Assembly (NCBI GenBank): GCA_963765765.1
Contig: CAVXYC010000010.1
Location: forward strand, 192,001 to 256,000
Reading direction: 5' to 3'
Source: an uncultured Chloroflexia bacterium
Lineage (GTDB): Bacteria; Chloroflexota; UBA6077; JACCZL01
Length of the DNA stretch: 64,000 nucleotides
Under the pieces are notes generated by a model. It saw only the letters and a program-made list of their open reading frames with translations, was not told where the DNA came from and ran no database searches. The translations under genes were made by a program, and so were the position numbers. Positions 10,441 to 38,369 of the stretch are shown here, piece after piece (the stretch's first letter is position 1; the number at the start of each line of letters is the position of its first letter).

Positions 10441-10512
10441 AGCGGGAGACGGGATTCGAACCCGCGACAACCTGCTTGGAAGGCAGGCACGCTACCACTG
10501 CGTCACTCCCGC
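10441..10512 (-). tRNA. tRNA-Gly (TCC)
   Basis: Cloverleaf with GCGGGAG/CTCCCGC acceptor stem, anticodon loop CT-TCC-AA and GGTTCGAATCC T-arm. Confidence 0.95.
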
Positions 10513-12187: not shown

Positions 12188-12260
12188 TCGGGGTGCCCGG
12201 ACTCGAACCGGGGACCTCATGGTCCCAAACCATGCGCGCTACCGACTGCGCTACACCCCG
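12188..12260 (-). tRNA. tRNA-Pro (TGG)
   Basis: Cloverleaf CGGGGTG/CACCCCG, anticodon loop TT-TGG-GA, GGTTCGAGTCC T-arm. Confidence 0.95.
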
Positions 12261-15281: not shown

Positions 15282-15369
15282 TCAGGGCGAATCAATGAGT
15301 GCGCCGCGAAGACGGCGCTGAAATCCGTATGCTTTGGGCCTACCTTCCAGAAAATGGGACGGAGCCCTG

Positions 15370-16559
15370 ATGACGTTCTTGACGCACCTCGAATGCCCCG
15401 AGACCGGCGAGCGGCTTCCCGCCGATCGTGAGCAGCATCTTAGTGCCGCTGGATTCCCGCTGCTGGCGCGCTATGACTACGCGGCCATCCGCGCGTCTAC
15501 TCCCAGGCGCGATCTCTCCGGACGCAGAACAGACCTCTGGCGATTCGCTGAGCTTCTTCCCAGTGACAACCCCGTCACTCTCGGTGAGGGCTGGACCCCA
15601 CTTCTGACACTTTCTCGCATTGGGCCGGAGCTCGGCCTCGGCCAGCTCGTTGTGAAGGAAGAGGGGCTCAACCCCACCGGCACGTTCAAAGCGCGCGGAG
15701 CGGCCGTGGGCGTGGCGTGCGCACGTGACCTGGGGGTGACGAATGTGGCGATGCCTACTGCCGGGAATCGCCGGCGGCGCCTGGGCTGGCTATTGCGCCA
15801 GTGCAGGATTGGGATTTCGCGTCATCATGCCCGCCGATGCCCCCTTGATAAATATGGCTGAGGCGCGAGTGTACGGTAGCAACGCGTCGTATGTGGACGG
15901 GTTGATATCTGACGCGGGCCGTATCATCGGCGCGGAGTCGGCCGAGCACGGCTGGTATGACGCGTCCACACTCAAGGAGCCGTACCGCATCGAAGGTAAG
16001 AAGACAATGGGTCTCGAGATCGCCGAGCAGCTCAACTGGGAGCTTCCCGACGTCATTCTCTATCCTGCCGGCGGTGGCGTGGGGCTCATTGGCATCTGGA
16101 AGGCGTTCGATGAGCTGGAGGCCATTGGCTGGATCGACAGTCGTCGACCGCGGCTCGTCGCGGTGCAGGCGGAGGGCTGCGCTCCGCTGGTTCGTGCGTG
16201 GAATGAGCAGGCGATTGAAAGCCGCTTCTGGGATGGCGCGGACACGATCGCAAGCGGTCTGCGCGTTCCGAAGCCGTTAGGCGATCGGCTGGTTCTTCGT
16301 GCCTTGCGTGAAACGAACGGAACGGCCATCTCCGTGAGCGACCGCGCGATCTCCGAGGCCGTTTCAGAGCTAGCCGAGCGAGAAGGAATGTTTGTGTGTC
16401 CGGAGGGCGCGTCTATGCTTCCGGCGCTGCGCTCACTCTGCGAGGGTGGTTGGATCAAGGTCTGGCGAGCGCGTTGTACTACTCAACACGGGGAGCGGGC
16501 TGAAGTATCCGGAGATGGTCTCACTGGATGGCGTCGAGACGCTTCCAAGGCCCAACTGA
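15370..16559 (+). CDS. thrC: Threonine synthase-like PLP enzyme (frameshifted)
   Basis: TLGEGWTPL, KEEGLNPTGTFKARG, PYRIEGKKTMGLE, YPAGGGVG, CPEG, and LNTGSGLKY in a shifted frame. Confidence 0.82.
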
Positions 16560-16697
16560 GAGTTTCCACCGAATTAGCGGCCTACGCCCCAGTCCTCTCC
16601 CGATAACTGGGTGAGGGGCTTAGCAACACAAGCTACTTCCGCAACTCGAGCGGAGCTATACTGGCACCGCCTCAGTCACCGCTGATCGGATCATGCC

Positions 16698-17813: not shown

Positions 17814-18964
17814 ATGGTCGCCAACACGAGTAGCGACGATCTTTCGAGAAATAACCCGTTTTTCCTGATCGATCCATATCGAGAATTTCTTCGCGACGAA
17901 GGGCGTTCCCGGTAGTCGAGCAATACTCGGTGAATGTTTTCGAGATCGAGCTGGAGCCGTGGAAGCGGCTCGGCGGTCTGGGATCGTACGTACACCTGGA
18001 AGGTCGCGGCGACTACTGCAACTGCTACGTGGTTAAGATCCCTCCCGGAGAGCAGCTCAACTCCGAGAAGCACGTATTTGACAAGGTCGTGTATGTCTTC
18101 CAGGGCCGTGGCTCGACGACGATCGAGCTGCCTAGCGGCAAACGCAACTCATTCGAGTGGGGACCGGGCAGCATGTTTGGCATCCCGCTCAACGCTCGGC
18201 ACCAGATCTTCAATGGCTCGGGCTCGGAGCCGGCAATTCTCGCGTGCAGCACCAACGCACCGATCTACATGAATCTGGTCCACAACACCGACTTCATCTT
18301 CGACAACCCATTCATCTTCCAGGAGCGACTTGGCGAAGAGCGTTACTTCTCCGGCGAAGGTGAGTTCCGCCAGGTGCGCCCCGGCCGCCACCAGTGGGAA
18401 ACCAACTTCGTATCCGACATCGTGAGCTTTGAGCTGCCGGTCTGGAATGAGCGCGGCGCTGGTGGCCGCAACATCATGTTCACGCTGGCGGATAGCCCGA
18501 TGCACATCCACCTTTCGGAGTTTCCGGTGGGGACGTACAAGAAGGCGCATCGACATGACTCGGGCGCGCACATCTTCATCGTGACGGGAGAGGGCTACAG
18601 CTTGCTCTGGCACGAGGGTCAGGATCCAGTCACCACGCGCAAAGTCGACTGGAAGCTCGGGTCGCTTTTCGCGCCGCCGGACGGACCGACCTATCACCAG
18701 CATTTCAATACCGCCTCCGCGCCGTCACGCTACCTGGTCACTGGCTTCTCCGGTGCTCGCTATCCCGTGCTCGAGAGCGCGCGACGACGGAACGAGGCCA
18801 GGATGAGTGACAAGTCGATCAAGCAAGGTGGATCTCAGGTCGAGTATGAGGACGAGGACCCACGGATCTTTGACCTCTTTCGATCCGAGCTCACCACGCG
18901 GGGGGCGTCACCGAAGATGGAGCGTTACCTCGGGGCTCGCGCTGGCAAGAAGTCGTGGCCATGA
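17814..18964 (+). CDS. Bicupin protein (gentisate-dioxygenase-like fold); frameshift near 17905
   Basis: RBS GGAGG before ATG 17814; C-terminal cupin KKAHRH...YHQHFN. Confidence 0.8.
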
Positions 18965-20519: not shown

Positions 20520-22667
20520 ATGGACTATTTCGCTCAAACGCTTCAGATCATCGGCGGCATCCTGAGCAACCCCATGTACTGGGTAGCGCTCTTTGCGACG
20601 ATCTTGCTGACCGGCCCAATTGGTCTTATCCCCGGCGTCGGGGCCACCACGGTTCTGGTCATCGCGCTTCCATTTGTGATTCTCAATCTCGATCCGCTGA
20701 TCGGCCTGGTGTTCATCGCGGGAATGCTGTCGCTGGGCAATACCATGGACATCATTCCCGCGGTGCTCCTGGGATATCCCAGCGGCGCTACGGCGGTTGA
20801 CTTTCTGGAAGGCCACCAGCTTGCCAGGCGTGGACTGGGCGCCCGAGTACTGGGCGCCAGCTACGCCGTATCCATGATCGGCGGGCTTATCGGCGCAACC
20901 ACGCCTGGCGTTCGCGATGCCCGGGCTCTGCGTGCGTTCATCGTGAATTTCTCATACGCTGAGATCGCCGCTATGGCGCTGTTTGGCGTCAGCATGGTGG
21001 CGATCCTCTCGCGGGGCGCCGTCATGAAGGGGCTTGGGTCCGCCTCATGGGCTTACTTCTTGCGAGCATCGGCGTGCTGCCCATTAGCGGCGTCGACCGA
21101 TTCACGTTCGACAACATCTACCTCTGGGATGGCATACCGCTGGTGGCGTTCCTCCTGGGAGTGTTCGCGTTCCCGGAGCTTGTGGACCTCAGCATGAGCC
21201 GGCAGCCCGTCGCCGCGAATAGCACGGTTTCCAATCGTGAGGTCTGGATAGGGTTCAAGGAAGGACTGAAGCGCTGGCGAACAATCCCCCGCCAGAGCCT
21301 CTTTGGCGTCTTCATGGGCTCAATACCTGGTATTGGCGGCGCGACGATTGAATGGCTCTCCTATGCACTGGGAATTGCCTTCTCCAAGGATAAATCGCAG
21401 TTCGGAAAGGGCAGCATGGACGGCATCCTCTTCACCGAGTCCGCCCAGAGCGCCAAGGAGGCGGGGCAGGCAATCCCCACACTCGCGTTTGGTATTCCGG
21501 GCGGATCCACTGGGCACTTTGCCTGGCCGCGATGGTGTCATATGGGATTGCGCCCGGCCTCGGTATGTTCACGACAAACATGCACATCACGATGGGCATC
21601 GTCCTGACCATCGGCCTTGGCAACCTGATCGGCGCGATCATGGCGCTATTCATCAGCGCCCAGGTGGCCCGCCTCACGCTGGTGCCTTACGCTTTTGTGG
21701 CGGGAATGATGCTGCCACTGATGTTCCTGAGCGCCTTCCAGGCCCGATTTCAGCTTGGCGATATCGTTGATGCTGCTTGCGATCGGCATCCTGGGACTCG
21801 CGCTGAAATGGTTTGGCTGGCCACGCCCGCCGATGATCATTGCGTTCGTCCTCGCTCCGGTCCTGGAACAAAATCTCTGGACCGCCGTGGGTGTAAACGG
21901 GCCTGCAGGCCTGCTCTCTCGTCCTTACGCCATAGCAATCCTGATTCTGGCGGGCATCACAGCTGTTTATCTGACTCGCGGATGATGGCCGACGGTGAGA
22001 AGTCGTGCCCTGGCGTCCGTGCACGAAGTCCTGCGACACAAGGATACCGGCGCCGTCATCAGCGGTGGGGCAGTTGCACTCTCGAGCCGAATGAACCGAC
22101 GCACCCGCCCCCGCGCATCGCGCCCACGTCGCTATCGTTGGAAATGGGAATATCTATTCTGGGCGGCGTTGATGGCCATTGTTGGTGGCGTCTTCTTGCG
22201 GCGAGAGCCTCACATACGAGGGCGCATCGCGATTCTTCCCATTGCTGGCCAGCATAGCTTTCCTGCTTGTCATGGCAGTGATCATCATTCGGGAGATCAT
22301 GGATCCGAACCGTGATCGCGGAGAGGTGATGGACATCGCCATGCGCACCGGGAACGAGCCGGAGGCGTCCGAGCGCTTCTAAGCACCCTGGCGTGGATGG
22401 CGGCATTCGTGGTCGCGATGGGGCATTGTGGGCTTCCGATCACGGCGATTCTGTTCCCAGTCGTGTTCATTCCAGCGAATCTGGAATGGCGCGGGAAGAA
22501 ACTGCTCTGGGTGTTGCTTCCGGTCGGCGCTCAGCGCGTTCGTGGTGCTCGTGCTTCTTGACAGCATGATGCACGTTGTCTGGCCGGATCGATTCATCTG
22601 GAACTGGTCTACGGGCGGGCGCGTACTAAACTCTGGGGTCGCGAGCGTCGCCACACGCGCGGTATAG
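20520..22667 (+). CDS. TctA permease, probably fused to a TctB-like domain (multiple frameshifts; end uncertain)
   Basis: GLIPGVG, AVLLGYPSG, DRFTF, GSIPGIGG, IPTLAFGIPG, GWPRPP, followed by about 4 further TM segments. Confidence 0.75.
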
Positions 22668-22735
22668 TGGGGCGGCCCACTGATGGCGCGACCGCGCATG
22701 GCACGGTCGCGCTTCGCAATCCACCGGAGCGCCCG

Positions 22736-24521
22736 ATGATTCCTCGCGCACTCGTCGTTCGAGTGCTGTTGGTCGTACTCGTATTGGTCGTCGCGGTCTC
22801 GCCGTCGATTCTTCAACCTCGACTCAGAAGCGCAGAGATCCAGACCGAGGCATTACTCTCGGACATGCAGCGGCTTGTTGATCAAGTAAACGCAATAGAC
22901 CACAGCGCTCTCTTAGGCATCAAGAAAGCAGCGGTCGCGAGCGGAAACCCTCTTTCCATAGCTCAGGCAAATGCCTCACTGGCCACGGAAGCGCAGACCC
23001 GTGCCGCCGCGGTCATGAAGCTATGGCTGACCCGCCTGGACCGTGAAACCGGACTCCCGCCCACGTCGCTCGTCCCATCCATACCTCGATTCATCTACGG
23101 CGATACCGGCGCCGATTTTCTGCCGCATTTTGGCATCGCTGTGCAGCTTCTCTCACCGGATGAGTACGGACTGATTCTCAACATGCTGTCCAACGAAAGG
23201 CGCTTGACGACTGGCGTGCCCGAGGCCATCGACCTCACGCTCGATCGGGAAACATCGATGGACACCGATGAGGCCATTTTTGACGCGGCCGAATACGCCA
23301 AGGACGGCCTACTGCCGCTCATTGAGCGACTTGGCACGGAGCCATGGCTTGGTAGGGCGCGCGAGGTGGCCGACTCGATCATTGCGGCCGCCAGCGTTCG
23401 GACTCCCAAGCAGGGAAGCGTTCCCGCCAACTCGACGGAAGTGAATGGCGACATGCTGCAAGTGCTCGCGCGGGTCTACTGGGCGACACGCGACATAAAG
23501 TATCTCGAGGCAGCCGACCGGATCGCGCTGACGTACCTTGAGGACGTGCTACCGAAGACAACCTACCTTCCTCCGAATCAATGGAACTTCATTGAGAACG
23601 AGCCGATTGGACGACGTCGGTTGAGGCTCTCCGATCACGGGAATGAAGTGATCGCTGGTCTCATTGAGTGGCACCTCGTTGAGTCCGCGTTGGAGCGTCC
23701 TGGGGTGGAGACTCATCGGCAAACAATCCGGCGCATGCTCGATCGAATTCTGCAGACGGGTCGGAATGAGGACGGTATGTGGCTGCGCGTGATTGAGATT
23801 CCGTCAGGTCGAGTGGAACAGCCTGGGGTGACCGACAACTGGGGATACGTCTTTCAGGCGTTCATGGCTCAGTCCGAAATCGAGCGCCAATTCCCCAACG
23901 GCGATACGGAAGTTGCCGATCGCTACGACGCCGCGGTGATCCGGGCACTCCAATCCTTACCGAAGTATCGAGACTATGCCTGGCAAAACGGCGAGATGGA
24001 TGGTTACGCCGATGCACTCGAGAGCGTGTTCTACCTGTTAGACAAATTCCCGGTGCAGGTGGCGGCGGAATGGACCGACGAGGAGATGAACGGCCTCTAC
24101 CGGTATCAGAAGCATGACGGGCACGTGCTCGAGCGTGATCTCGACGGCAATTTCATGCGGACGTCGCTGCTCTACTCATCGTGGCTGATGCGTGGATCCC
24201 GTCTGTCTCCGTGGGACCTCGCAAGTGAACCTGGGTGCCGCGGTTGACCGCGAGTGCACCGTGTTTTCGCTCGACTCGAGCTCGGATTGGTCCGGGCGAG
24301 TTGTGTTCGACACGCCTCGCTCGCGCGACAATTTCAACCTTCCCTTCGACTACGCGCGATTGAACAAGTGGCCAGAGTGGTTTGTGGCTGATCCGGTAAA
24401 GAACTATCAGATCTCGGGCATGCTCGGGGAGCAGGTAACGTCGGGGCAGGCACTCGCCGACGGCCTGGCAGTCACGCTCACACCCGGACAGCAAGGCTCG
24501 CTGAGGATCTGTCCGGGGTAG
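22736..24521 (+). CDS. Membrane-anchored or secreted hypothetical protein, possible (alpha/alpha)6 glycosidase-like fold (frameshift near 24220)
   Basis: N-terminal hydrophobic helix; motifs AEYAKDGLLP, EVNGDMLQ, SDHGNE, DNWGY, DGYADALES, DGNFMRT. Confidence 0.55.
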
Positions 24522-24714
24522 GCGAATGCCCTACTCCTCACCCAAAGTGCGAGGGATCGCGGTGTGAAGCCGTCGGGCCTGATATGGCCAGACCGGCTCC
24601 TAGTCCCTTTGGAAGAAGACTGGGTGAGGGAAGAGCGACCTCTCAAAGCCAGCACGATGCCCCGCATGCCCGCCGCACGTCACGTGTAATATTCCCGCGA
24701 AGGAGCTGTTATTC

Positions 24715-26893
24715 ATGGCCCACCACGCTGTCATCGATCCCCGTCCCGGCTGACTACCGAGATGCGCGCCTTTGCGCTGTCTACCTGGCGCCGGACCTCC
24801 TGAAGGCCATGGGTGCAGCGACTGACGATGTCGTTCGAATCACCACACATAGGGAGCGAACAGTGCTGGCCCGTGTGGCCGGGCCCTTTGTGGACGGCGC
24901 GCCTGAAAGCATTCAGATCGATCGCTTCACGCGTCAGGCTCTGAAGGCTTATCCGCATGAGGAGGTGCACCTCGAGCTCGTGGATCCCCAGCCGACGCCC
25001 GAGCTTGCGCTGGTACCCGGTGTGGATATGAGTCAGCGCTATAACCCGCAACTTGTTCCGCAGCTCAAGCGAGTCCTGGCCCAGAACCGGACCCCCGTGC
25101 GGCGAGGCATGATGCTGTACGTGCAACTTCCGGACGGGCTGGCTGGAATTGCCTATGACGTCCACTTCGTCGGCGGTAACGAAGGAATCGTCACGCAGGA
25201 CACGGCGCTCTGGCTGATTCAGGACGATCACGATCACGGCCCAGACGATCACGACCACGAACATGATCGGCGATCGGAGACGGTTGTCGACACAACGTAC
25301 GAAGACATCGGCGGCCTGAGCGCGCAGATCCGCGAGGTGCGTGAATTCGTGGAGCTACCGCTGGTCTTTCCCCAGGTCTACCGACAGCTCGGGATCAACC
25401 CGCCCAAGGGCGTGATCTTTTTTGGTGCGCCTGGGACCGGCAAGACGCTACTTGCGCGCTCGGTCGCGAATGAGATCAACGCGCGATTCTTCTACATCAA
25501 CGGTCCCGAGGTAATCGGTACCTACACCGGTCAGACCGAGGAGAATCTGCGTAAGATATTCGCCGACGCCAGTACTGAGCCGCCATCGATCATCTTCATC
25601 GATGAGCTTGACGCTATCGCCCCGGTTCGGCGTATGGCCTCGACGATGTCGGATTCGCGGGCTGTGACTCAGCTTCTCGCACTCCTGGATGGGCTGAAGC
25701 GCGCCGAGGGCGTGATGGTGATCGGAACCACGAATCGGATCGAGGCGATTGATCCAGCACTCCGCCGGGCAGGGCGGTTCGATCGAGAGATCTACTTCCC
25801 AACTCCGTCATCGGATGCTCGCGAGCAGATTCTCCGCGTGCATACCCGCGAAATGCCGCTCAGTGACGATGCGATCGAAAACATTCCGTCGGTTGCCGAT
25901 CGGGCATATGGTTATGTGGGCGCCGATCTCATGGAGCTCAGTCGAGAGGCGGGGTTGAACGCGCTGCGAAGGGCTTCCCAGGAGTTTATCGCCGCGCCAT
26001 CGCTCGCCTCGTATCCCCGACCTGAGAAGCTGATCATCACCGGTGGCGATTTTGATGCGGCGCTCAAACGCGTGCGGCCCGCCTCCATGCGTGAATCGCT
26101 TATAGCCTTCCCCACGGTCACGTGGAACGATGTAGGAGGCCTGGAGCACGTCAAGAAACGTCTGAGGGACCTGGTGGAGCAGCCTCTGCGTCATCCTGAA
26201 CAGTTCGCCGAGATAGGCCTCTCCACGAACCTTGGAGTGCTGCTGTACGGCCCGCCCGGAACCGGAAAAACCCTGCTGGCTAAGGCCATTGCGAGAGAGT
26301 CTGGGGTCAATTTCATACCGATTCAAGGGCCCGAATTATTCTCACAGTGGCTCGGTGAGTCCGAGGAGAGCGTAAGACACATCTTCAACGTTGCCCGCCG
26401 CGCCTCTCCATGCATTGTGTTCTTCGATCAGCTCGACGCGGTGCTGTCACATCGTGGCGACGGCGATCACGAGGGCTCGCGTGCTCCGCAGCGCGTGGTG
26501 AACCAGCTTCTGGCCGAGCTCGATGGCATGGAGCAGCTCGGCGACGTCATCGTCATCGGTGCTACCAATCGGATCGCCATGGTGGATCCGGCGGCGTTAC
26601 GACCGGGGCGGTTCGGCGTTCACCTGCACGTAGGCTTACCCGACGAGCATGATCGCGCCGAGATTCTCCGCATTCATCTCCGCGATGCGGCGATCGAGCC
26701 AGGCTCCACGACGGAAAATTTGATCTCTCACTTACTCCCCATGACAGATGGGCTCTCCGGTGCGGATCTGGCATTCATGTGTCAGACCGCAAAGCTCGAT
26801 GCCATGCAGGAAGTGGACTTTCAAGCGGCGCCTCGCCTGGCACCGCGCCATTTTGAAGATGTCCTGCCAGAGCTTTCCTCGCGGGAGAACTAG
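24715..26893 (+). CDS. CDC48/p97/VAT-like type II AAA+ ATPase
   Basis: N-domain plus two AAA modules: TYEDIGGL, GAPGTGKT, IIFIDE, ALRRAGRFDREI; VTWNDVGGL, GPPGTGKT, IVFFDQ, LRPGRF. RBS AAGGAG precedes ATG 24715, which needs a 1-nt indel to join the ORF. Confidence 0.9.
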
Positions 26894-26905
26894 CTGCTAG
26901 GCGAG

Positions 26906-27019
26906 CCCTGGGACCGTGGGCGGCCCACCCGTACCTGCCAATGCGTAGCCAGAGGCGAGGAACAGGGTGTTGATGGACGAGGCATGATCGGGACGGGCGG
27001 GCCGCCCGCGGTCCCAGGG
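26906..27019. repeat. REP-like inverted doublet between convergent genes
   Basis: CCCTGGGACCGTGGGCGGCCCACCCGT vs reverse complement of ACGGGCGGGCCGCCCGCGGTCCCAGGG, 25/27 match. Confidence 0.7.
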
Positions 27020-27027
27020 AGGCGAAT

Positions 27028-28181
27028 CTACGCCGGGGCCATTTCCGCGGTGGCCGTTTCCGCGGTGGCCGTTCCACGGTAGCCATTGATTCCAGCACGT
27101 AACAGCGCTCCGGCGGGATCCGCAGAAATACGCGTTGGCCTTCATTCAGCACCGTGAACGGCTCACCTTTCACCCGTACGAGACGTCCGTTTAGATCGAG
27201 TTGATACTCGATCGTGTCCCCGAGATATTGCGCCGTTGCCACAGTCGCCTCGATGACGTTGTCCTTCTCGTTCGGAGGTGTGTCGCTCAGCAACACGCCC
27301 TCGGGCCGAAACCCCATCATCACCGCGCTGCCCACCGTTGCCCACTCAGGCAGAGGGGCTACGAGCTCTCCCCAGGCGGAGTCGATCAAGCCGGCGCCTC
27401 CCGGAGGGCCGAGTCGACTAATCATCCCATCGAGAAGGTTCGTGCGCCCAAGGAAGTTGGCTACAAACGACGAATTCGGTTCCAGATACACATCGCGTGG
27501 AGCACCGGACTGCACAATCACTCCGTCGCTCATCAACGCAACGGTGTCGGACATGGCCAGCGCCTCGAGCTGATCGTGTGTCACGTACAACGTGGTGATC
27601 CCAAGCCGATGCACCAGTGACTTGATCTCGTGACGCATATCCTCTCGCAGCTTTGCGTCGAGATTTGAGAGCGGCTCGTCGAGCAATAAGACAGTGGGCT
27701 CGTGTACCAGCGAGCGGGCCAGAGCCACGCGCTGTTGTTGTCCTCCCGAGAGCAGTGGTGCTGGCCGATCAGCCAGATGGTCCAGCTGAACCAGGCTCAG
27801 CGCACGCATGACCTTTTCTTTAATATCGCTCTTGGAGATGCGCTTGTGACCGTGCTCGAGAGGGAAGGCCACGTTCTGAAACACTGTCATATGGGGCCAG
27901 ATCGCATAGCTCTGAAACACCATGCCGATGTCGCGTTGGTGTGGAGGTGTCAGTGTTCGCGCCTCTGGGTCGAACACCACATCGTCACCGATCTGGATCT
28001 GGCCGCCACTTGGTATCTCGAGGCCGGCGATGGAGCGCAACGTGCTCGTCTTGCCGCAGCCTGAAGGGCCCAGAAGGGTAAAAAATTGCCCGTGCTCCAC
28101 GGTGAATGAGACGCCTCGCACAGCGCGTACATCCGCTGAGCCGGTGCGGTAGGTCAACTCCAGGTCAGTAACTTTCAGCAT
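27028..28181 (-). CDS. ABC transporter ATP-binding protein (FbpC/PotA type)
   Basis: [31 protein letters not shown]-like C-terminus; true stop probably TAG at 27028 after a 1-nt deletion in a 15-bp repeat. Confidence 0.92.
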
Positions 28182-28417
28182 GCTGCGCTGCACTCCCGAG
28201 CGTGCGCCCTATACGTGTTGAGCCTCTGGACATTCTAGTCATCATCATCTAGTCCGACAATGAAAACGGCTGCGCGTCAGTAAGCATGCGTCGCGCAGCC
28301 GCTCGAATTCATTGACAAGACTCTAGACGCGTGATTAATGTTCTCACCAATTAGACTGGCAGTCCACGCCGGTTGTGAAACTCCGGGCGAATCGCCAGTT
28401 CGCGTGAGGTCTCATCG

Positions 28418-29521
28418 ATGATCAGTACCAACCGGCGAGCGTTTCTCAGAATTGTGGGCCTTGGGGCCAGCGCGGCGCTCGTGGCTGCGTGTAGTCAACC
28501 TGCACCGGCAGCTAAGCCAGCCGCGCCGGCGGCATCAGGATCGGGTGCCGCAACAGCGCCCGCGAACCTCATAGATCAGGTCTACGAGGCTGCCAAGAAG
28601 GAAGGCAAACTCGTCTGGTGGGACCAGCATACGCTAGAGGTCTCGTCGCGTTACATCGATGCGTTCAAGAAGAAGTATCCAGGCATCGAAGTGGAGTACT
28701 TCAACCAGACGGCTGATGAGCTGAAGACGAAAGCCGTTGCGGAAGCGCGCGCCGGACGCATGTCGTTTGACGTAATCGACTCCGGAAGTAATTACACGGC
28801 ATACAAAGATGCCGGCATATTCGCGGATAACTCGGATGTGATCGTCGCTGCCGGTGTTCCCGCGAGCGACGTCTATGAGGGATCATTCTCCCCCGAATAC
28901 ACTGTGAACGGCGTCGCATATAACCCCAATCTCGTGAAGGTGGAGGAGCTTCCGAAGACCTGGGAGGGGTTCCTGGAGCCGCAGTGGAAGGGCAAGCTGG
29001 CAGTAGAGACGCGCTTCCGTTCCTTCGTCTACGGAACGCCCTTCATGGGCGGCGAAGACAAGGTCGCCGAGTATCTCGGCAAACTCAAGGAGCAGAACCC
29101 CCGACTGACGAAGGGCGACGCCGATAGCAATACCATGCTGGTGGCAGGCGAGTACGCCGTCCTGGTCGGTGCCTATCTACACAACGTGGTCAAGTACGAG
29201 CCCAAAGGGCAGCCATGGGGCTTCGCTCCACTGAATGAGGTCTACGTAGCTCCTCAGGGACCGGGATATACCGTTCCCGAGAAAGCACCGCATCGTCAGG
29301 CAGGCCGTCTATTCCTCCACTGGCTCGTTGGCAATGAAGGCATCGCACTCATGGATGAGCTGCGCTTCAAGGGGAACCCTGCGCCTGGTTCCGGCACCGG
29401 GCCGTCGAAGCTTCTCGAAGAACGGAAAATCACGCCAAAGACCCCGCCGCTCGAGTACGAGATCAACTATTCGAAATACGAGAAGCGATACGGCGTCGCG
29501 CTCGGCCTTCCGAGCGTCTAA
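28418..29521 (+). CDS. ABC substrate-binding Tat lipoprotein (Fe3+/polyamine-type cluster)
   Basis: NRRAFLR Tat motif, VAAC lipobox, AAKKEGKLV, LPKTWEGFLEPQWKGK, KAPHRQAGRLF. Confidence 0.88.
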   Translation: MISTNRRAFLRIVGLGASAALVAACSQPAPAAKPAAPAASGSGAATAPANLIDQVYEAAKKEGKLVWWDQHTLEVSSRYIDAFKKKYPGIEVEYFNQTADELKTKAVAEARAGRMSFDVIDSGSNYTAYKDAGIFADNSDVIVAAGVPASDVYEGSFSPEYTVNGVAYNPNLVKVEELPKTWEGFLEPQWKGKLAVETRFRSFVYGTPFMGGEDKVAEYLGKLKEQNPRLTKGDADSNTMLVAGEYAVLVGAYLHNVVKYEPKGQPWGFAPLNEVYVAPQGPGYTVPEKAPHRQAGRLFLHWLVGNEGIALMDELRFKGNPAPGSGTGPSKLLEERKITPKTPPLEYEINYSKYEKRYGVALGLPSV

Positions 29522-29530
29522 TGAGCTGGG

Positions 29531-29629
29531 TCCTGGGAACGTGGGCTTCTCGGCCGTCCCGACCCGAACATGACCAGCACTGATCACCAATCGAGCCGAT
29601 CGGGACGGGCAAGATACCCGCTCCCAGGA
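29531..29629. repeat. REP-like inverted doublet, same family as 26906-27019
   Basis: TCCTGGGAACGTGGGC...CCGTCCCGA / TCGGGACGGGCAAGATACCCGCTCCCAGGA; shares GATCGGGACGGGC with the 26.9-kb copy. Confidence 0.65.
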
Positions 29630-29656
29630 TCCAGTCAGCTTCAGTGAGGTTCGCGC

Positions 29657-31456
29657 ATGAGCGCAGTTGATATAGGTCGTTCCTCCGCGCGCACGTGGTC
29701 CTTCCATATGCCTCGCCGGTTGACGACGCAGGAAATCGTTTACGCGATTCTGTTCCTTCTCGTTGCGAACCTCGTTCTGGTTCCGCTAGGGATGGTGATT
29801 GCCACGAGCCTCAACGTTGGGCCGATTACGGCTCCCGGCGAGGTGGGATTCACGCTCTCGAATTACGTGCGCGCGTGGACTAGCCCAACGACGCACGCGG
29901 TCATCATGAATACGCTGATCTTCGCCTTCTTCTCGACGTTTCTGTCAATGACTCTGGGGGTGTTCTTCGCATTCATGGTCGAACGCACCGACATGCCGCT
30001 GAAAAACTTCGCGTATGCCGTGGTACCACTGACCATCGCAATGCCCGGACTTCTCTACGGAATCGCCTGGGTCCTACTTTTAAGTCCGAATATTGGCCTA
30101 TTCAACCTTGCCTTGATGGGGCTGTTCGGGGCTGAGCAGGGCATTCTCACGAGCTGGGCGCACGTCGGCCTGTCAGAGGCACCGATCAAGCCGTACAGCA
30201 TGGCGGGAATGATTTTCGTGGACGCCATTCGTGGCGTGGGCGTCGTCTTTCTTATGACCGTGGGGCTCTTCCGCAACATGGATCCTTCTCTAGAGGAGGC
30301 CGCGGCGGTCTCCGGTGCCGCCCCGGCAACGGTGGCCAACAAAGTCACATTGCGGGTGATGATGCCGGGTATCCTGGCCGCGTTCGTATACGCGCTCACG
30401 GGTAATCTCGAGACATTCGATATCCCAGCGATCATGGGTCTGCCAGCGGGCATCCATCTGCTCTCCACGAAGATCTACCTGCTCTCAAAGACGGATGATC
30501 ACGGCATCGCGAGTGCGCTGGGCGTTGTCTTTGTGGTCCTCGCCGTCTTCTTCGTCTGGTGGTATTCGCGGCTGACCAAGCGAATCGAATCGTTCAGTAC
30601 GGTCACAGGCAAGGGATATCGACCAAGACAAATGCGGATTGGACGATTTAAGTACGTCGCCGTAGCGATCGTCATGCTGTATCTCGGCATCGTCGTGGTG
30701 GCGCCGTTTTTTGTCATGCTATGGGCTAGCATCCTGCCGTACTATCAGATCCCGAGCTGGCAGGCTTTGCAGTCCGTGAACCTCGATGCCTACAAGTTCG
30801 TCATCACCAATCCGTGGGGAGTCACGGCAATGCGTAACACACTCATCCTGACGTTCGCGGCGCCAACGGCGACGATGCTGATCGCTACGCTCATTTCCTG
30901 GTTTGTGGTTCGATCGAATATGCCTGGGAAGCGTCTGTTGGACGTCATGGCGTTCCTGCCACACACAGTCCCCAGCATCATCATTGCGCTCGCCATGATC
31001 TATCTCTTCCTTACCGTCCCGTGGCGCCTCATCCCTATCTACGGAAGCGTGTGGATTATTAGCCTGGCCATAGCCACTCGATATCTGGCTTTTGGCTCTC
31101 GAACGATGCACGGTTCGGTCATCCAGATCCATAAGGACCTGGAGGAGGCTGCGCAAGTTGGCGGAGTGTCCTGGGGCAAGGCGTTTCGCTACATTGTGCT
31201 GCCATTGCTCTTCCCGGCCATCGTCTCAGGTTGGGTATTCGTGGCGTTGCACTCGATCCGCGAGGTCTCCATGGCGCTCCTTCTGTATTCGCCCGATAGT
31301 CGAGTGATCTCACTTTTGATGTGGGACACCTGGCACAACGGTGAGGTCGCCATCGCATCGGCCACGGGTGTTCTGCTCATGATCGCGATCGGCTTCATCA
31401 TTCTCGCGGGTCGCCTGGTGGATCAGCGGCGGTCTAAGATGAAGGCTGGGCTTTAG
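29657..31456 (+). CDS. ABC permease, duplicated FbpB type
   Basis: Two EAA loops (SLEEAAAVSGA, DLEEAAQVGG); TVTGKGYRP linker. Confidence 0.92.
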   Translation: MSAVDIGRSSARTWSFHMPRRLTTQEIVYAILFLLVANLVLVPLGMVIATSLNVGPITAPGEVGFTLSNYVRAWTSPTTHAVIMNTLIFAFFSTFLSMTLGVFFAFMVERTDMPLKNFAYAVVPLTIAMPGLLYGIAWVLLLSPNIGLFNLALMGLFGAEQGILTSWAHVGLSEAPIKPYSMAGMIFVDAIRGVGVVFLMTVGLFRNMDPSLEEAAAVSGAAPATVANKVTLRVMMPGILAAFVYALTGNLETFDIPAIMGLPAGIHLLSTKIYLLSKTDDHGIASALGVVFVVLAVFFVWWYSRLTKRIESFSTVTGKGYRPRQMRIGRFKYVAVAIVMLYLGIVVVAPFFVMLWASILPYYQIPSWQALQSVNLDAYKFVITNPWGVTAMRNTLILTFAAPTATMLIATLISWFVVRSNMPGKRLLDVMAFLPHTVPSIIIALAMIYLFLTVPWRLIPIYGSVWIISLAIATRYLAFGSRTMHGSVIQIHKDLEEAAQVGGVSWGKAFRYIVLPLLFPAIVSGWVFVALHSIREVSMALLLYSPDSRVISLLMWDTWHNGEVAIASATGVLLMIAIGFIILAGRLVDQRRSKMKAGL

Positions 31457-31805: not shown

Positions 31806-32864
31806 CTACGCTTTCTGCGCGTCAAACTCCGGAGCATTCTCAAAATACACGGGGTGTGAATAGCCCAGGTGTTTGAACATTCCGTTCTGGGAGGCAATGA
31901 TCTTCGCCGGCTTGGATGGGTCGGAGTTGAAGCGCTGGATCACCTGGTTCTGTGGGACCCAGATGACGTCGCCCTTCTTCCACTCCCAACGCGTGGGCTT
32001 CTTCGCTACTCGGGCGTAGAAGCGATCGGTGATCTCCGCTTCAACGTCCCAATGCAGGTCGTAACCTTCGCCCTCGAGAACGAAGACGGCCTCATCAGCC
32101 ATCTGCCAACGCTTGCCTGAGCGGCTGCCGCCGGGAATCTCCTGGAGGTAGGCGTCCACGCCTTTGATCCGTAGTGGAACACCTGCTCCGGCGAGCTGAC
32201 GGACATAACCGAGCTCGGTCCAGACCCAGGGGGTCGCGTCTGACTTCATGACTTTGGGAAGAAGCTCATCCCCGGGCGGGCGAGCGGCCAGCCACTCCAT
32301 CGGTGCTTCCCAGTTCTCATCGTCAGCTGGCTTCGTGCCGATCTTGCCCTGCTGCCAGAGGCCCAGGAAGAGCGCCAGTGGCTTCGGTTTCATCACCAGG
32401 CAAATGGCGCGCTCTTCGGGATCCGGATTGTTGTGCCAGTGCACACAGTCATTGTGCACCGCTACGCAGTCACCCTTCTCCCATTCGTATCGCTGGCCAT
32501 CGTGCATCTCATAGCCGTGGCCCTGGAGGACGTAAAAGAGCGCTTCATTCTGGTGTCCGTGACCGTCATTACGACCGTTTGGCTGAACGGTAACGAAATG
32601 GACGTGCAGGCTCTGGGTGCGGAAGGTCTCATCTCCTGGATCAATGATCTTCCAATTCTCGCTTGTGCCCTCTCCCAGCGACGGAGTGAAGACGCGCGGA
32701 ACCGTCTGCATCCGCTCGCGGCGCTCCTCGGTGAGCGTATAACGCATGCTGCCAATCTGGCGAACGTAGATGCGCTCCTTCTCGTAGTGGTCCTTGTAGA
32801 TATGGACGTTGGTGTCCGTACGCTCCTGCGTCTTTGTCTGAGTTCGTTCCTGTTCTAAGGCCAT
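31806..32864 (-). CDS. Bicupin protein
   Basis: N-terminal cupin DGHGHQNEALFYVLQG...HWHNN; degenerate second cupin; RBS GGAAGGAG. Confidence 0.85.
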   Translation of the reverse strand: MALEQERTQTKTQERTDTNVHIYKDHYEKERIYVRQIGSMRYTLTEERRERMQTVPRVFTPSLGEGTSENWKIIDPGDETFRTQSLHVHFVTVQPNGRNDGHGHQNEALFYVLQGHGYEMHDGQRYEWEKGDCVAVHNDCVHWHNNPDPEERAICLVMKPKPLALFLGLWQQGKIGTKPADDENWEAPMEWLAARPPGDELLPKVMKSDATPWVWTELGYVRQLAGAGVPLRIKGVDAYLQEIPGGSRSGKRWQMADEAVFVLEGEGYDLHWDVEAEITDRFYARVAKKPTRWEWKKGDVIWVPQNQVIQRFNSDPSKPAKIIASQNGMFKHLGYSHPVYFENAPEFDAQKA

Positions 32865-35495: not shown

Positions 35496-37258
35496 CTAAA
35501 TCGTGCTGCCTCGCCCGAACGCGCCAAGGCGTCGTGCAATGAGAAGACCTGCCCCATTGATCAAGAGGAGCACCATTGCCAGTGCCGCGACCGTTTCGAG
35601 ACGGCCAGCCTGGCTGTAACTGAATAGCGTCACCGCCAGGAGCTCAACTCCTGGACCGGTGAAGAGAATCGTGGAGCTAACCGCTCGCGAGAAGCCGATG
35701 AAGAGCAGCAGGAACGCTCCCGCGAAGGCCGGCTTCAGGATGGGTAGGACTATCGTCCAGAATGTTCGAGCCCAACTTCCACCAAGGACCCGCGAGCTCT
35801 CCTCGAGCTCCCGGCCAAGCTGAACCATGACGCCGGACATGAGGCGCACGCCCAACGGGAGACCGGTGGTGAGGAACACCAGGACTAGCAGCCAGATTGA
35901 GCCGTAAAGATCCTTGATACCGGGGATGCTGATGTACGCCCACAGCATGCCAAGACCAGCAACGACGCCGGGAATCGCCCAGGGTAACCAGGTTATCGTA
36001 TCCAGAGCTTTGCGGCCGGGATAATTTGTGCGCGTGCTGATATACGCAATCACGCTGCAGAGTGTCACCGCGAGCATCGCCGACCCGCCGCACACCATCA
36101 GCGTGTTTATGAAGCTGCGCCAGAGCACTACATCAGAGAGAATCTGCAGATAATTCTTGAACGTGATCTCAGATGGGTTCACGACTGACAGGTTTGGCAT
36201 CAGCGACGTGATGAGAAGCTGAGAGAGTGGCAATGCCGTGGAGATCAAGAAGAAGCCCAGGCACACGGCAAACGTGACCCATTTCCACGGACCAAGCCGA
36301 ATGATCTGTGGCTTGTACCCCTTACCCGTAACGACGAAAAACTCTCGGCCGCCAAGAAGCTTGTTCTGCATGAGAATCAAGCAGAATGTCAGAGCCACAA
36401 AGGTGACGCCGAGGGACGTGGCCAGGCCGTAATTCACGGGGTAATCGTATTGCACGGCTGCGTAGATGCGGTTGGAGAATACGAATACTTTGGCTGGTAG
36501 GCCGAGCAGCACCGGGACTTCAAACGTCTCCATGGCGCGGATGAAGCTCAGCATGCCAGCCCCGAGGATGGCTGGCGCCATCAAAGGCGTCGTGACACTG
36601 ATGGCCGTTCGGATCGGGCCTGCGCCCGACACACGGGAGGACTCCTCGAGCGATGCATCCATGTTGCGTAACGCGTTCACCATCAAGAGGAAGATGAACG
36701 AGGTGGATCCCACGGAGAGCACCCAGAGCATGCCGCCAAGACTGTAGATGTTGAATGGCGACTCACTCAGTCCAAACAAGTTCCTGAGAAATACATTGAG
36801 CACACCGGTATTTGGGCTGAGCAGCAAAATCCAGCCGATCGCTTCCAGGAGCCCGGAACGAAGATTGGAATCGTGAGCAGGACCTCCAGAGTGCCCCGAA
36901 ACGGCGTATCCGTTCGCGTCACGATCCAGGCCATCGTCAGCGCGAACACCACTGCGATGATCGTCTTGGCGCCCATGAGCAGCAATGTCGTGCCGAAGAC
37001 ACGGTAGGTACTCGGGTCGGAGTAGGCTTTGATGTAGTGATCCAGCGTCAGCGATCCATCGAAGCCGGGGCGGGCAGTCCAGAAACTACCAAAGAGCAAC
37101 ATGGAAATCGGGAACAGCACTAGCAGTCCCACAAACACGGTCACGGTGGACATGGCGATGAAGCCGGGAGTCAGTCTGAATCGCCGACGCCGTTGCGTTT
37201 GGCGCGCAAGCTCGATGGCTTCGGCTCGATCGAGCCCAGTCTCTATGGCGACGCTCAT
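35496..37258 (-). CDS. ABC permease, duplicated FbpB type (frameshift near 36855)
   Basis: [30 protein letters not shown]. Confidence 0.9.
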
Positions 37259-38369
37259 GTGGCCACCTCCCGCGGGAGCAGTACGACATCGGACGGATCA
37301 CACGAGATAAACACGTGGTCTCCCACCGCGGCGCGCACATCGTGTCCAGCAACCACTGACATCTCTCGTTCACGGGCAGTAACGACGTATTCCCAGTGAT
37401 CGCCAAAATATGCCGCGGAAGTCACCGCGCATTCCCACGCGTTAGTGCCGCCATTCGGGCGCTGTCGAACCAATCTCAGGCGCTCCGGCCGAATGGAGGC
37501 AAAGACGGTTTGTGAAGCGCGGAAGCCAGCAGCTTCGGCCGACGAGCAACGCACCCCTTCATCGGACCAATCCACACTGAGAACGACCGAATCGTCGTCG
37601 CTTACCTCTCGAACCTGGGCGGGGAGCATGTTGATGGATCCCACGAACTCGCTGACGAAATGACTCCGAGGCTGTTCGTAAATCTCATGCGGCGTCCCGA
37701 TCTGCTCGATTCGACCTTTGTTCATCACAATGATACGATCCGCCAGCGCCATGCTTTCGGCCTGATCGTGCGTGACGAATATGCTGGTAATGCCTGTCTT
37801 CCGCTGAAGCTGCTTCAGCTCCGTGCGCATGTGCACGCGCAGCTTCGCATCCAGGTTTGACAGCGGTTCATCCAAGCAACAGAATGCGCGGCTCGAACAC
37901 CAGCGCCCGGGCGAGTGCAACGCGCTGCTGCTGGCCGCCGGAGAGCGCTGGTGCCGGGCGGTTCTCGTACCCCTCTAATCCGATAAGCGCCAAGGTCGCG
38001 CTCACCTTCTCGGCGATCGACTTCTTTGCCACGCCCCGCACTTTAAGGGGGTAGGCTACGTTCTCAAAGACGGTCATATGCGGCCAGATAGCGTAACTCT
38101 GGAACACCATGCCTAAATTGCGCTTCTCTGTCGGTACCCAGATGTTGCTGGAAGCCGAGCTGACTATGCGGTCGCCGATCGTCACGTCGCCCGCATCGGG
38201 CTCTTCGAGACCCGCCATCATACGTAGAGGACGTGGTCTTTCCACATCCGCTCGGTCCTAAAAGAACGAGTAGCTCACCGTCCTCAACGTCGAATGAGAC
38301 CCTGTCGACGGCGGTGACCGAGCCGTCGCTAAATAACTTCACCACGTCACGGAATGCGACCGCGGACAT
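37255..38369 (-). CDS. ABC transporter ATP-binding protein (two frameshifts)
   Basis: [35 protein letters not shown] across three frames. Confidence 0.9.

Follow-up and report, generated by a model that had tools for sequence, protein, structure and literature searches.

What does a bacterial relative of Cdc48 do when its second ring, the one regarded as the main motor in p97/Cdc48, has lost the catalytic glutamate? In the usual picture, Cdc48/p97 is a D2-driven motor that feeds proteasomes. The question is raised by a gene in a 64,000-nucleotide stretch of DNA from an uncultured Chloroflexia bacterium (GenBank assembly GCA_963765765.1, contig CAVXYC010000010.1, positions 192,001 to 256,000 of the forward strand), hereafter, the window. 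An open reading frame (ORF) at 24584..26893 (+) yields, on translation, a two-module AAA protein (P0001), in which the Walker B motif of the first module, D1, ends in the standard DE and that of the second module, D2, ends in DQ. The evidence presented below suggests that this protein belongs to a clade of D1-driven Cdc48/VAT-like ATPases with an ATP-locked D2 that work with a bicupin and not with the proteasome, and that a break in the reading frame near the start of the window's gene is most likely an assembly indel. Taken as a whole, we assign this reading a probability of roughly 55%.

The second ring of the ATPase

The full N-D1-D2 architecture proposed in the initial annotation, which was made from the DNA letters alone, is real, judging from the agreement between domain profiles, the closest sequence of known structure and a structural alignment. 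Pfam recognizes two PF00004 (AAA) and two AAA_lid_3 stretches, along with a weak match of 23.6 bits to PF02359 (CDC48_N) at residues 64-131, where the cut-off is 35.1. TIGR01243 (CDC48 family), the best NCBIfam model, aligns to residues 66-744, and the best sequence match in the PDB is archaeal VAT (5vc7, E 7e-165). The AlphaFold2 (AF2) model, with a mean predicted local distance difference test (pLDDT) value of 85.1, aligns in Foldseek to full-length p97 chains over ~734 columns (E 3e-70, 38% identity). The modules of the protein are as follows:

24728..25219 (+): N domain, residues 49-212 of P0001; weak PF02359 match, confidently folded in the AF2 model
25220..25291 (+): His-rich linker between N and D1, residues 213-236, with DHDHGPDDHDHEHD at 25226-25267
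25292..26098 (+): D1 AAA module with all catalytic motifs, namely, Walker A GAPGTGKT (25424-25447), pore loop GTYTG (25517-25531), Walker B IIFIDE (25589-25606), sensor-1 GTTNR (25724-25738) and RRAGRFD (25763-25783)
26099..26863 (+): D2 AAA module with Walker A GPPGTGKT (26249-26272), pore loop SQWLG (26342-26356), Walker B IVFFDQ (26414-26431), sensor-1 GATNR (26558-26572) and RPGRFG (26600-26617)

The motifs read as the initial annotation had described them: the Walker B motif of D1 is canonical (IIFIDE, residues 336-341, with GAG at 25604-25606); that of D2 is IVFFDQ, with CAG at 26429-26431; D2 keeps Walker A, the SQWLG pore loop and RPGR (inside RPGRFG); and the protein ends in LSSREN, with no HbYX motif. 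Cdc48, VAT and p97 have the catalytic Walker B Glu in both rings; here, D2 has Gln.

The Gln is a natural trait shared by a large set of proteins. The query was aligned with the 120 best proteins from a search of 5.8 billion proteins (clustered at 90% identity), and D2 carries DQ in 119 of the resulting 121 rows (117 of 119 when the window's own are excluded), with DE in D1 throughout (121/121). Thus the closest orthologues do not carry DE, and the substitution is not peculiar to this genome. The two rows with DE belong to longer proteins (993 and 1019 amino acids), and Q is found in homologues down to 53% identity. The homologues come from Chloroflexota metagenome-assembled genomes (MAGs), Acidimicrobiales and Dehalococcoidia as well as from Blastococcus, Modestobacter and Egicoccus, the last three being cultured carriers, with B. 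saxobsidens and E. halophilus among them. Clade loci read from DNA, among them Deltaproteobacteria and Syntrophales MAGs, are all DQ except for EQ in one (L017). In the 52-sequence alignment A1, the Gln is invariant, which excludes chance; the full set of invariant residues comprises K562, W589, D615, Q616, R676 and G678 in D2, and K287, D340, E341, N384, R395 and R398 in D1, and two more D2 residues, N662 (sensor-1) and R673, are conserved in at least 90% of these sequences.

For a deeper comparison, the 150 best representatives at 50% identity were taken, 42 were dropped for length and 108, of 600-900 amino acids, were kept, which together with the query makes 109 rows. D1 has DE in every one of them, and D2 has DE in 90, DQ in 13, and DH, DN, EQ, EG, DD and DA in one each. 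In a tree of the D1-D2 region built with the Gln column left out, 17 of the 19 non-DE rows fall on one side of a single branch (FastTree support 94). The same split was recovered by IQ-TREE (approximate likelihood ratio test, SH-aLRT, 92.8) from 48 rows, that is, the 17 clade rows, P0201, P0206, P0266 and 28 randomly drawn DE rows; with the DE sister P0201 added to the clade, support is 95 (FastTree) and 98 (IQ-TREE). Given this grouping on one branch, the loss of Glu is old and was essentially a single event. By these counts, the clade numbers 119 clusters in the first search, where the threshold was 90% identity, and 17 when clustering is done at 50%.

Within D2, just two columns tell the 17 representatives of the clade apart from the remaining 92 rows. 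At the first, E616Q, Q is present in 14 of the 17 and H, D and N in one each, with Glu in none; at the second, D678G, which turns RPGRFD into RPGRFG in the second region of homology, G is present in 15 and S in two. All 17 retain, in D2, the Lys of Walker A, the Trp of the pore loop and the second Arg. The mean majority fraction of the large subdomain is 0.77 for D2 versus 0.83 for D1; being conserved nearly as well as its counterpart in D1, D2 is under selection and not decaying.

The linker between N and D1 has a signature of its own, which, like the D678G change, the initial annotation had passed over. Its consensus in the window's subfamily is DHxHGPxDHxHxH; the stretch contains 4-7 His in 116 of the 121 rows, the other five being the two DE proteins and three fragments truncated at the N-terminus, and H216, H218, H223 and H225 are conserved in at least 90% of the 52 sequences. 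The motif was not found in 91 DE-type representatives (mean 0.34 His) and is absent or weak in deeper members of the clade. Linker residues 216-234 have AF2 pLDDT values below 50. With five linker His per subunit, the window's protein would present 30 per hexamer.

The bicupin neighbour

Comparison of ORFs around the ATPase in related loci revealed one recurrent family, a bicupin of ~350 amino acids. In the window, ABC (ATP-binding cassette) transporter genes (26775-31456) part the two, leaving a gap of 5 kb, and the genes are on opposite strands:

31806..32864 (-): bicupin P0390, 352 amino acids, the candidate partner, identified by a Cupin_2 match, Foldseek and adjacency in relatives

Of 21 distinct DQ loci, 15 have an ORF directly beside the ATPase that matches a profile built from ten of its bicupin neighbours (L011/G301, G131, both loci of G032, L015, L017, L018, L019/G062, L020/G026:C41, G026:C49, G149, G095, G291, G397 and G354), and 17 have one within 5 kb. 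The adjacent bicupins occur in all relative orientations, and in L014 the bicupin lies one gene away from the ATPase. The same profile gave no match in the control loci: seven AAA loci elsewhere in the window's genome, 12 that encode DE-type or unrelated AAA proteins, and two additional ones of the DE type.

The association extends to whole genomes. Among 301 genomes sampled from the window's phylum, the ATPase was detected in 12 (10 DQ, two DE) and the bicupin also in 12, including all 10 of the DQ genomes and neither of the DE ones; the remaining two (G068 and G050) have the bicupin only. In a second sample of 301 genomes, drawn around the Actinomycetota MAG of L011, the ATPase was detected in five (four DQ, one DE) and the bicupin in seven, that is, in 4/4 DQ genomes, in 0/1 DE genomes and, without the ATPase, in G309, G504 and G570, the last of which bears only on the count of bicupin-only genomes. 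For the 602 genomes combined, the bicupin family is present in 14/14 DQ genomes and in 0/3 of the DE type. In G140 and G567, the two genes are unlinked, yet both are present. Furthermore, the pairwise distances of 13 ATPase-bicupin pairs are correlated (r 0.57), a value reached in none of 5000 permutations (Mantel test). For nine bicupin homologues, the longest contig of the source is as long as that listed for a DQ-ATPase homologue, which hints that both genes may lie on the same contigs; this coincidence does not enter the counts given here. The initial annotation had asked whether the D2 Gln co-occurs with cupin, amidohydrolase and ABC transporter genes: for the cupin, it does, and the other two are not conserved neighbours. 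When the bicupin (alignment A2) and the N domain and linker of the ATPase (alignment A1, residues 53-240) were modelled as a complex, the score was 0.00, which counts neither way.

Some genomes carry the genes in several copies. In G032 (C2:73365-89033; L048 and L049, same order), two paralogous DQ-type ATPase genes lie 11 kb apart, one with a single adjacent bicupin and the other with two in tandem, and a fourth bicupin is encoded on another contig. In G302, the genome of L017 (a Deltaproteobacteria MAG), the bicupin family is strongly expanded and includes a tandem array of four (for example, C12:12866-17304).

The bicupin itself falls below all NCBIfam cut-offs: it scores 32.7 bits against NF049978 (5-aminosalicylate dioxygenase; cut-off 650) and 17.1 bits against TIGR02272 (gentisate 1,2-dioxygenase; cut-off 442.1), which places it outside these families. 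In databases, its homologues are named 'quercetin dioxygenase-like cupin family protein' or 'cupin domain-containing protein'. With the AF2 model (pLDDT 85.4), the best Foldseek matches are gentisate/salicylate 1,2-dioxygenases (2d40, 2phd and 3bu7; E ~1e-15, TM 0.5-0.6), followed by MncA (PDB 2vqa), oxalate decarboxylase and seed globulins; there is also a weak sequence match to 3bu7 (E 2.4e-7). In the N-terminal cupin, H102, H104, E107, H142 and H144 are invariant in 47 bicupin homologues; because this His/Glu cluster is kept, the N-terminal cupin retains a metal site, and the bicupin is probably an enzyme. The C-terminal cupin has no His ligands in the window's bicupin subtype. A second, distant bicupin with a Cupin_2 match is encoded 6 kb upstream of the ATPase, at 17930-18964 (+) (bicupin-profile E 4.9e-19).

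A role independent of the proteasome, which the initial annotation had put forward, fits the genome. No match to the proteasome family PF00227 was found in the window's 92%-complete genome, whereas the control search matched 10 of 14 reference genomes; a Pup ligase likewise gave no match in that genome; and neither an HbYX-type tail nor a penultimate Tyr is present in any of 18 clade representatives. The pairing of HbYX and a 20S proteasome in the same genome that marks the proteasome-docking archaeal type is thus not found here. A defence-system reading was dropped, as PADLOC gave only generic AAA matches (IetA, TRIP13) for the ATPase and none for the bicupin.

Mechanism, alternatives and the start of the gene

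In AAA+ proteins, the Walker B E-to-Q substitution blocks hydrolysis. In the D2 of this clade, Glu is replaced by Gln and RFD by RFG, yet the ring retains its Walker A Lys, second Arg and pore-loop Trp, so that it is expected to bind ATP and to be non-hydrolysing or nearly so; by sequence, it belongs with rings that have Walker A and lack the catalytic Walker B Glu, such as NSF D2 and Pex1/6 D1. D1 is the likely motor because every catalytic motif and the aromatic pore loop are kept. From these comparisons, we infer that D1 acts as the motor, that D2 is inactive and that the ATPase and the bicupin interact physically. Judged by its motifs, the enzyme may also be the 'trap' or holdase that the initial annotation had in mind. 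In the mechanism that we envisage, D1 would drive substrate translocation, and D2 would bind ATP and line the pore while hydrolysing little or nothing, serving as a nucleotide-locked ring that stabilises the hexamer and passively holds the substrate; the bicupin would be the probable client, possibly a cofactor, of the ATPase. D1-driven unfolding has a precedent in the VAT lineage, given that a review table (PMC5447069, Table 1) gives VAT with a D2 Walker B mutation 50-100% of ATPase activity and function.

Several observations pull in the opposite direction. The TIGR01243 score of the ATPase, 625.6 bits, is under the cut-off of 802.65. Residual or compensated hydrolysis by D2 may persist in a lineage that has long carried Q, and the retained sensor-1 Asn (at least 90%) and Arg residues also fit a slowly turning ring. 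The bicupin was not found in the available DNA of four of the 21 loci (G167, a 5.6-kb contig, G140, L016 and G567). The genome-level thresholds (ATPase E <= 1e-150, bicupin E <= 1e-40) were our own choice, and because the genomes include kin, the Mantel test and the counts of co-occurrence are both inflated. Five genomes (the bicupin-only ones named above) have the bicupin family and no detected DQ ATPase, and G302 has 19 bicupin-profile matches and one detected ATPase locus, so the relation between the two proteins is not one-to-one.

One alternative is that D2 is still a working, slower ATPase, in which Gln and the change from RFD to RFG retune hydrolysis, so that D2 becomes a timer ring and both rings translocate. 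This would explain why 17/17 representatives have the Lys of Walker A, the Trp of the pore loop and the second Arg in D2 and why N662, R673 and the large subdomain of D2, the last almost as well as that of D1, are conserved, and the H, N or D found at the Gln position in deeper members suggests that a polar residue is tolerated or wanted there. However, only Q616 and G678 distinguish this D2, which offers no clade-specific alternative acidic residue, and the engineered E-to-Q change abolishes function in p97 and Cdc48, as listed in Table 1 of PMC5447069. We consider a slow D2 rather unlikely.

Another explanation is that the ATPase is a general quality-control unfoldase and that the bicupin is found close to it only because both travel in shared, horizontally transferred catabolic islands, with no direct interaction. 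The distribution is indeed patchy across phyla (Chloroflexota, Actinomycetota, Deltaproteobacteria and Syntrophales), with a strong match in only 12 of the 301 genomes of the phylum sample and three genomes of the same family without one, and the neighbourhoods hold a Rieske/LigXa_C oxygenase (confirmed by Pfam in two of the four loci that its ORF cluster covers), SBP_bac_5 binding proteins (near the ATPase in three loci) and a Zn-dependent alcohol dehydrogenase, which also recurs. None of these other neighbours recurs in more than four loci, though, and the bicupin is the only one kept across phyla, in every relative orientation; it is present in all DQ genomes, even where unlinked (G140 and G567), and in one genome there are two pairs of ATPase and bicupin, separated by 11 kb. 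We therefore find passive co-transfer unlikely and favour a functional link between the bicupin and a D1-driven ATPase.

A more specific proposal for that link, which we offer as speculation and regard as doubtful, is that of a dedicated 'metallo-reactivase' system: a D1-driven unfoldase with an ATP-locked D2 and a metal-binding His collar at the N-D1 junction would unfold or loosen the bicupin so that the buried, kinetically trapped metal site could be loaded, corrected or re-reduced. Such a system would be a bacterial analogue of Rubisco activase for the cupins of aromatic catabolism, acting in the maturation or repair of metal centres. The idea draws on the invariant His/Glu site of the bicupin, the conserved His of the linker, the Rieske-oxygenase neighbours and work in which cupins, MncA (one of the fold matches) among them, are reported to acquire metal during folding.

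The start of the ATPase gene poses a separate problem. The initial annotation took 24715-26893 as the span of the gene; the ATG at 24715 is the conserved start, but the frame is not continuous, as 2179 nucleotides are not divisible by 3. Translation from this ATG gives MAHHAVIDPRPG and reaches a stop after 12 codons. The elements involved are these:

24700..24747 (+): ribosome-binding site and start, with AAGGAG at 24700-24705, ATG at 24715 and 11 frame-A codons (MAHHAVIDPRP)
24748 (+): nominal position of an extra base, within CCCGGC (24745-24750); frame A ends at TGA (24751-24753)
24749..26893 (+): frame-B body of the ATPase gene, comprising 714 codons and the stop

The closest homologues, P0003 and P0004 (91% and 89% identity), have the N-terminus MAHHA(V/L)IDPRP(V/I)DYRE, a sequence that the window also encodes, its first part in frame A and the rest in frame B. 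When the window is aligned at the DNA level with a same-genus relative (L009), both AAGGAG and the ATG are kept, and the window has one extra base at ~24748 (CCCGGCTGAC vs CCC-GTGGAC). From these two comparisons, the native gene consists of 24715-24747 (11 codons) and 24749-26893; the joined protein has 725 amino acids, and most full-length homologue rows have 720-745. The break is probably an assembly indel in a C/G run, given that a nearby TctA-like gene (20520-22257, +) is also split between frames.

It is improbable, in our view, that the break is real, the gene being either a pseudogene or expressed through the ATG at 24584 or a +1 slip at CCC-G. The extra base does stand in the sequence as given, the gene caller's product at the locus (P0002) is truncated to 676 amino acids, frame B is open upstream to the ATG at 24584, and a +1 slip on CCC-G would restore the exact homologous register. 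Yet the base sits within a C/G run in a window in which other genes, such as the TctA-like one, are split too, pointing to indel errors; the remaining 714-codon frame is intact, with 91% identity to the same-genus orthologue; and the 44 upstream frame-B residues, predicted to be disordered (AF2 pLDDT <50) and present in no homologue, speak against the upstream ATG. A programmed +1 frameshift at CCC-G was judged unlikely; the site differs from the prfB type, as the stop in the window lies one codon past CCC.

Public sequencing runs did not reach across the site: the best shares of sampled words were 0.45 and 0.30, none reaching half, and four runs yielded only short contigs of relatives, none of which spans the break. 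A contig from a soil metatranscriptome (X11, record 9) equals the window over 258 nucleotides (24746-25003); it starts at the site of the break and does not bridge it, and DNA carry-over in the library is possible. As for the D2 codon, although the assembly seems to hold indel errors, a miscalled base at 26429 in place of a true GAG is next to inconceivable, considering that the suspected errors are indels and not substitutions, that Q recurs in nearly all non-self homologues and in every DQ-clade locus read from DNA, and that a relative's soil-metagenome contig (X3, record 29; 26249-26502) is identical at 26429-26431.

Around the ATPase, the window has the catabolic and transport character that the initial annotation had described, with the TctA pieces, two ABC transporter clusters, an Amidohydro_2 gene and the second bicupin. 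In the TctA-family gene at 20520-22257 (+), three ORFs in different frames match consecutive parts of a single L017 TctA ORF, and tblastn shows at least one frame change near 21011-21047, which suggests assembly indels or pseudogenes. Two further places have a possible frame break: the PALP-domain ORF at 15322-16603 (+) starts at profile position 66, with a 179-amino-acid ORF in another frame just upstream, and at 37258-38257 (-), a TOBE_2-only ORF next to an ORF of 129 amino acids stands for an ABC ATPase. The ORF of the ABC-transporter ATPase at 26775-28193 (-; ABC_tran and TOBE_2) continues ~105 residues past TOBE_2 and overlaps the convergent 3' end of the ATPase gene by 119 nucleotides, reflecting either a real extension or a stop missed through an indel. 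Directly upstream of the ATPase, at 22667-24247 (+), lies an ORF of 526 amino acids with a hydrophobic segment at its N-terminus, which Pfam does not match and which has no equivalent in the related loci compared; a terminator-like hairpin follows it at 24280-24297, and apart from this hairpin, a scan of 24200-27200 for promoters and terminators was at chance level. An Rfam scan of the whole window at the gathering score found only two tRNAs, at 10441-10512 and 12188-12260 (-), 1.7 kb apart and both scoring 71.2 bits, possibly duplicates.

Relation to known systems

Searches of full-text open papers (subscription papers, for example, Gerega et al. 2005, and supplements lie outside this scope) found nothing on this group of ATPases, on Gln occurring naturally in the D2 of Cdc48-like proteins or on any connection between cupins and Cdc48 or bicupins and AAA+ proteins; the text of PMC5070193 mentions neither bacteria nor Walker B. 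Within that scope, the ATPase-bicupin link and the D2-Gln clade appear to be new; natural non-catalytic rings are already known elsewhere.

On the side of the bicupin, the nearest known proteins are the gentisate/salicylate dioxygenases, which share with P0390 the bicupin fold and the N-terminal metal-site motif. P0390 differs from them in scores far under the family cut-offs and in a C-terminal cupin without His ligands.

Among the ATPases, VAT/Cdc48 (5vc7, 5g4f) shares with the window's protein the N-D1-D2 layout, classic-clade AAA modules with the second region of homology and the aromatic D1 pore-loop residue. Both Walker B motifs of VAT carry Glu, and its D2 reads RAGRFD, whereas the D2 of the window's protein has Gln and RFG; the window's protein also has no HbYX-type tail, a His-rich linker, a bicupin neighbour and a genome without a proteasome match, whereas VAT docks on the 20S proteasome, according to the part of PMC5447069 that deals with it. 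With p97/VCP/Cdc48, the window's protein has the whole-chain fold in common. There, the D2 E-to-Q change is an engineered loss of function (as tabulated in PMC5447069), whereas in the window's family Gln is the natural, invariant state; and p97/Cdc48 has ubiquitin-adaptor partners, of which there are none for the window's protein.

Cpa is likewise a bacterial N-D1-D2 Cdc48-like ATPase with one degenerate ring, and the polarity is the opposite. As described in the sections of PMC6017811 on this family, the D1 of Cpa is degenerate, with neither the sensor Asn nor the Arg finger, the D2 motifs are strictly conserved, and Cpa always accompanies the 20S proteasome (prcAB). The window's protein has a complete D1, an altered D2 and no proteasome or Pup-ligase match in its genome, and thus falls outside Cpa. 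Bacterial Cdc48 homologues other than Cpa are presented in the same sections as sporadic, archaeal-like imports, and no D2 Gln is mentioned there.

Considered as a division of labour between rings, the clade resembles NSF and Pex1/Pex6, in which D2 and D1, respectively, are natural ATP-binding, non-catalytic rings. NSF D2 is a nucleotide-binding, non-hydrolysing ring; it is not known for an aromatic pore loop or for the Arg residues, both of which are present in the window's D2. In section 7 of PMC5447069, Asn or Asp is reported to replace the Walker B Glu naturally in Pex1 D1. NSF and Pex1/6 are, however, eukaryotic, belong to other subfamilies and have other N domains, and in Pex1/6 the degenerate ring is D1. 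In the clade described here, evolution has fixed the very substitution with which experimenters kill D2, with the D2 pore loop kept, and this makes it a natural system for probing what a double-ring unfoldase gains from a second ring locked by nucleotide. The bicupin, in turn, is a concrete and testable candidate client for a bacterial Cdc48-like machine and suggests, in contrast to the proteasome-feeding role of the classic Cdc48/p97 motors, a dedicated job without the proteasome.

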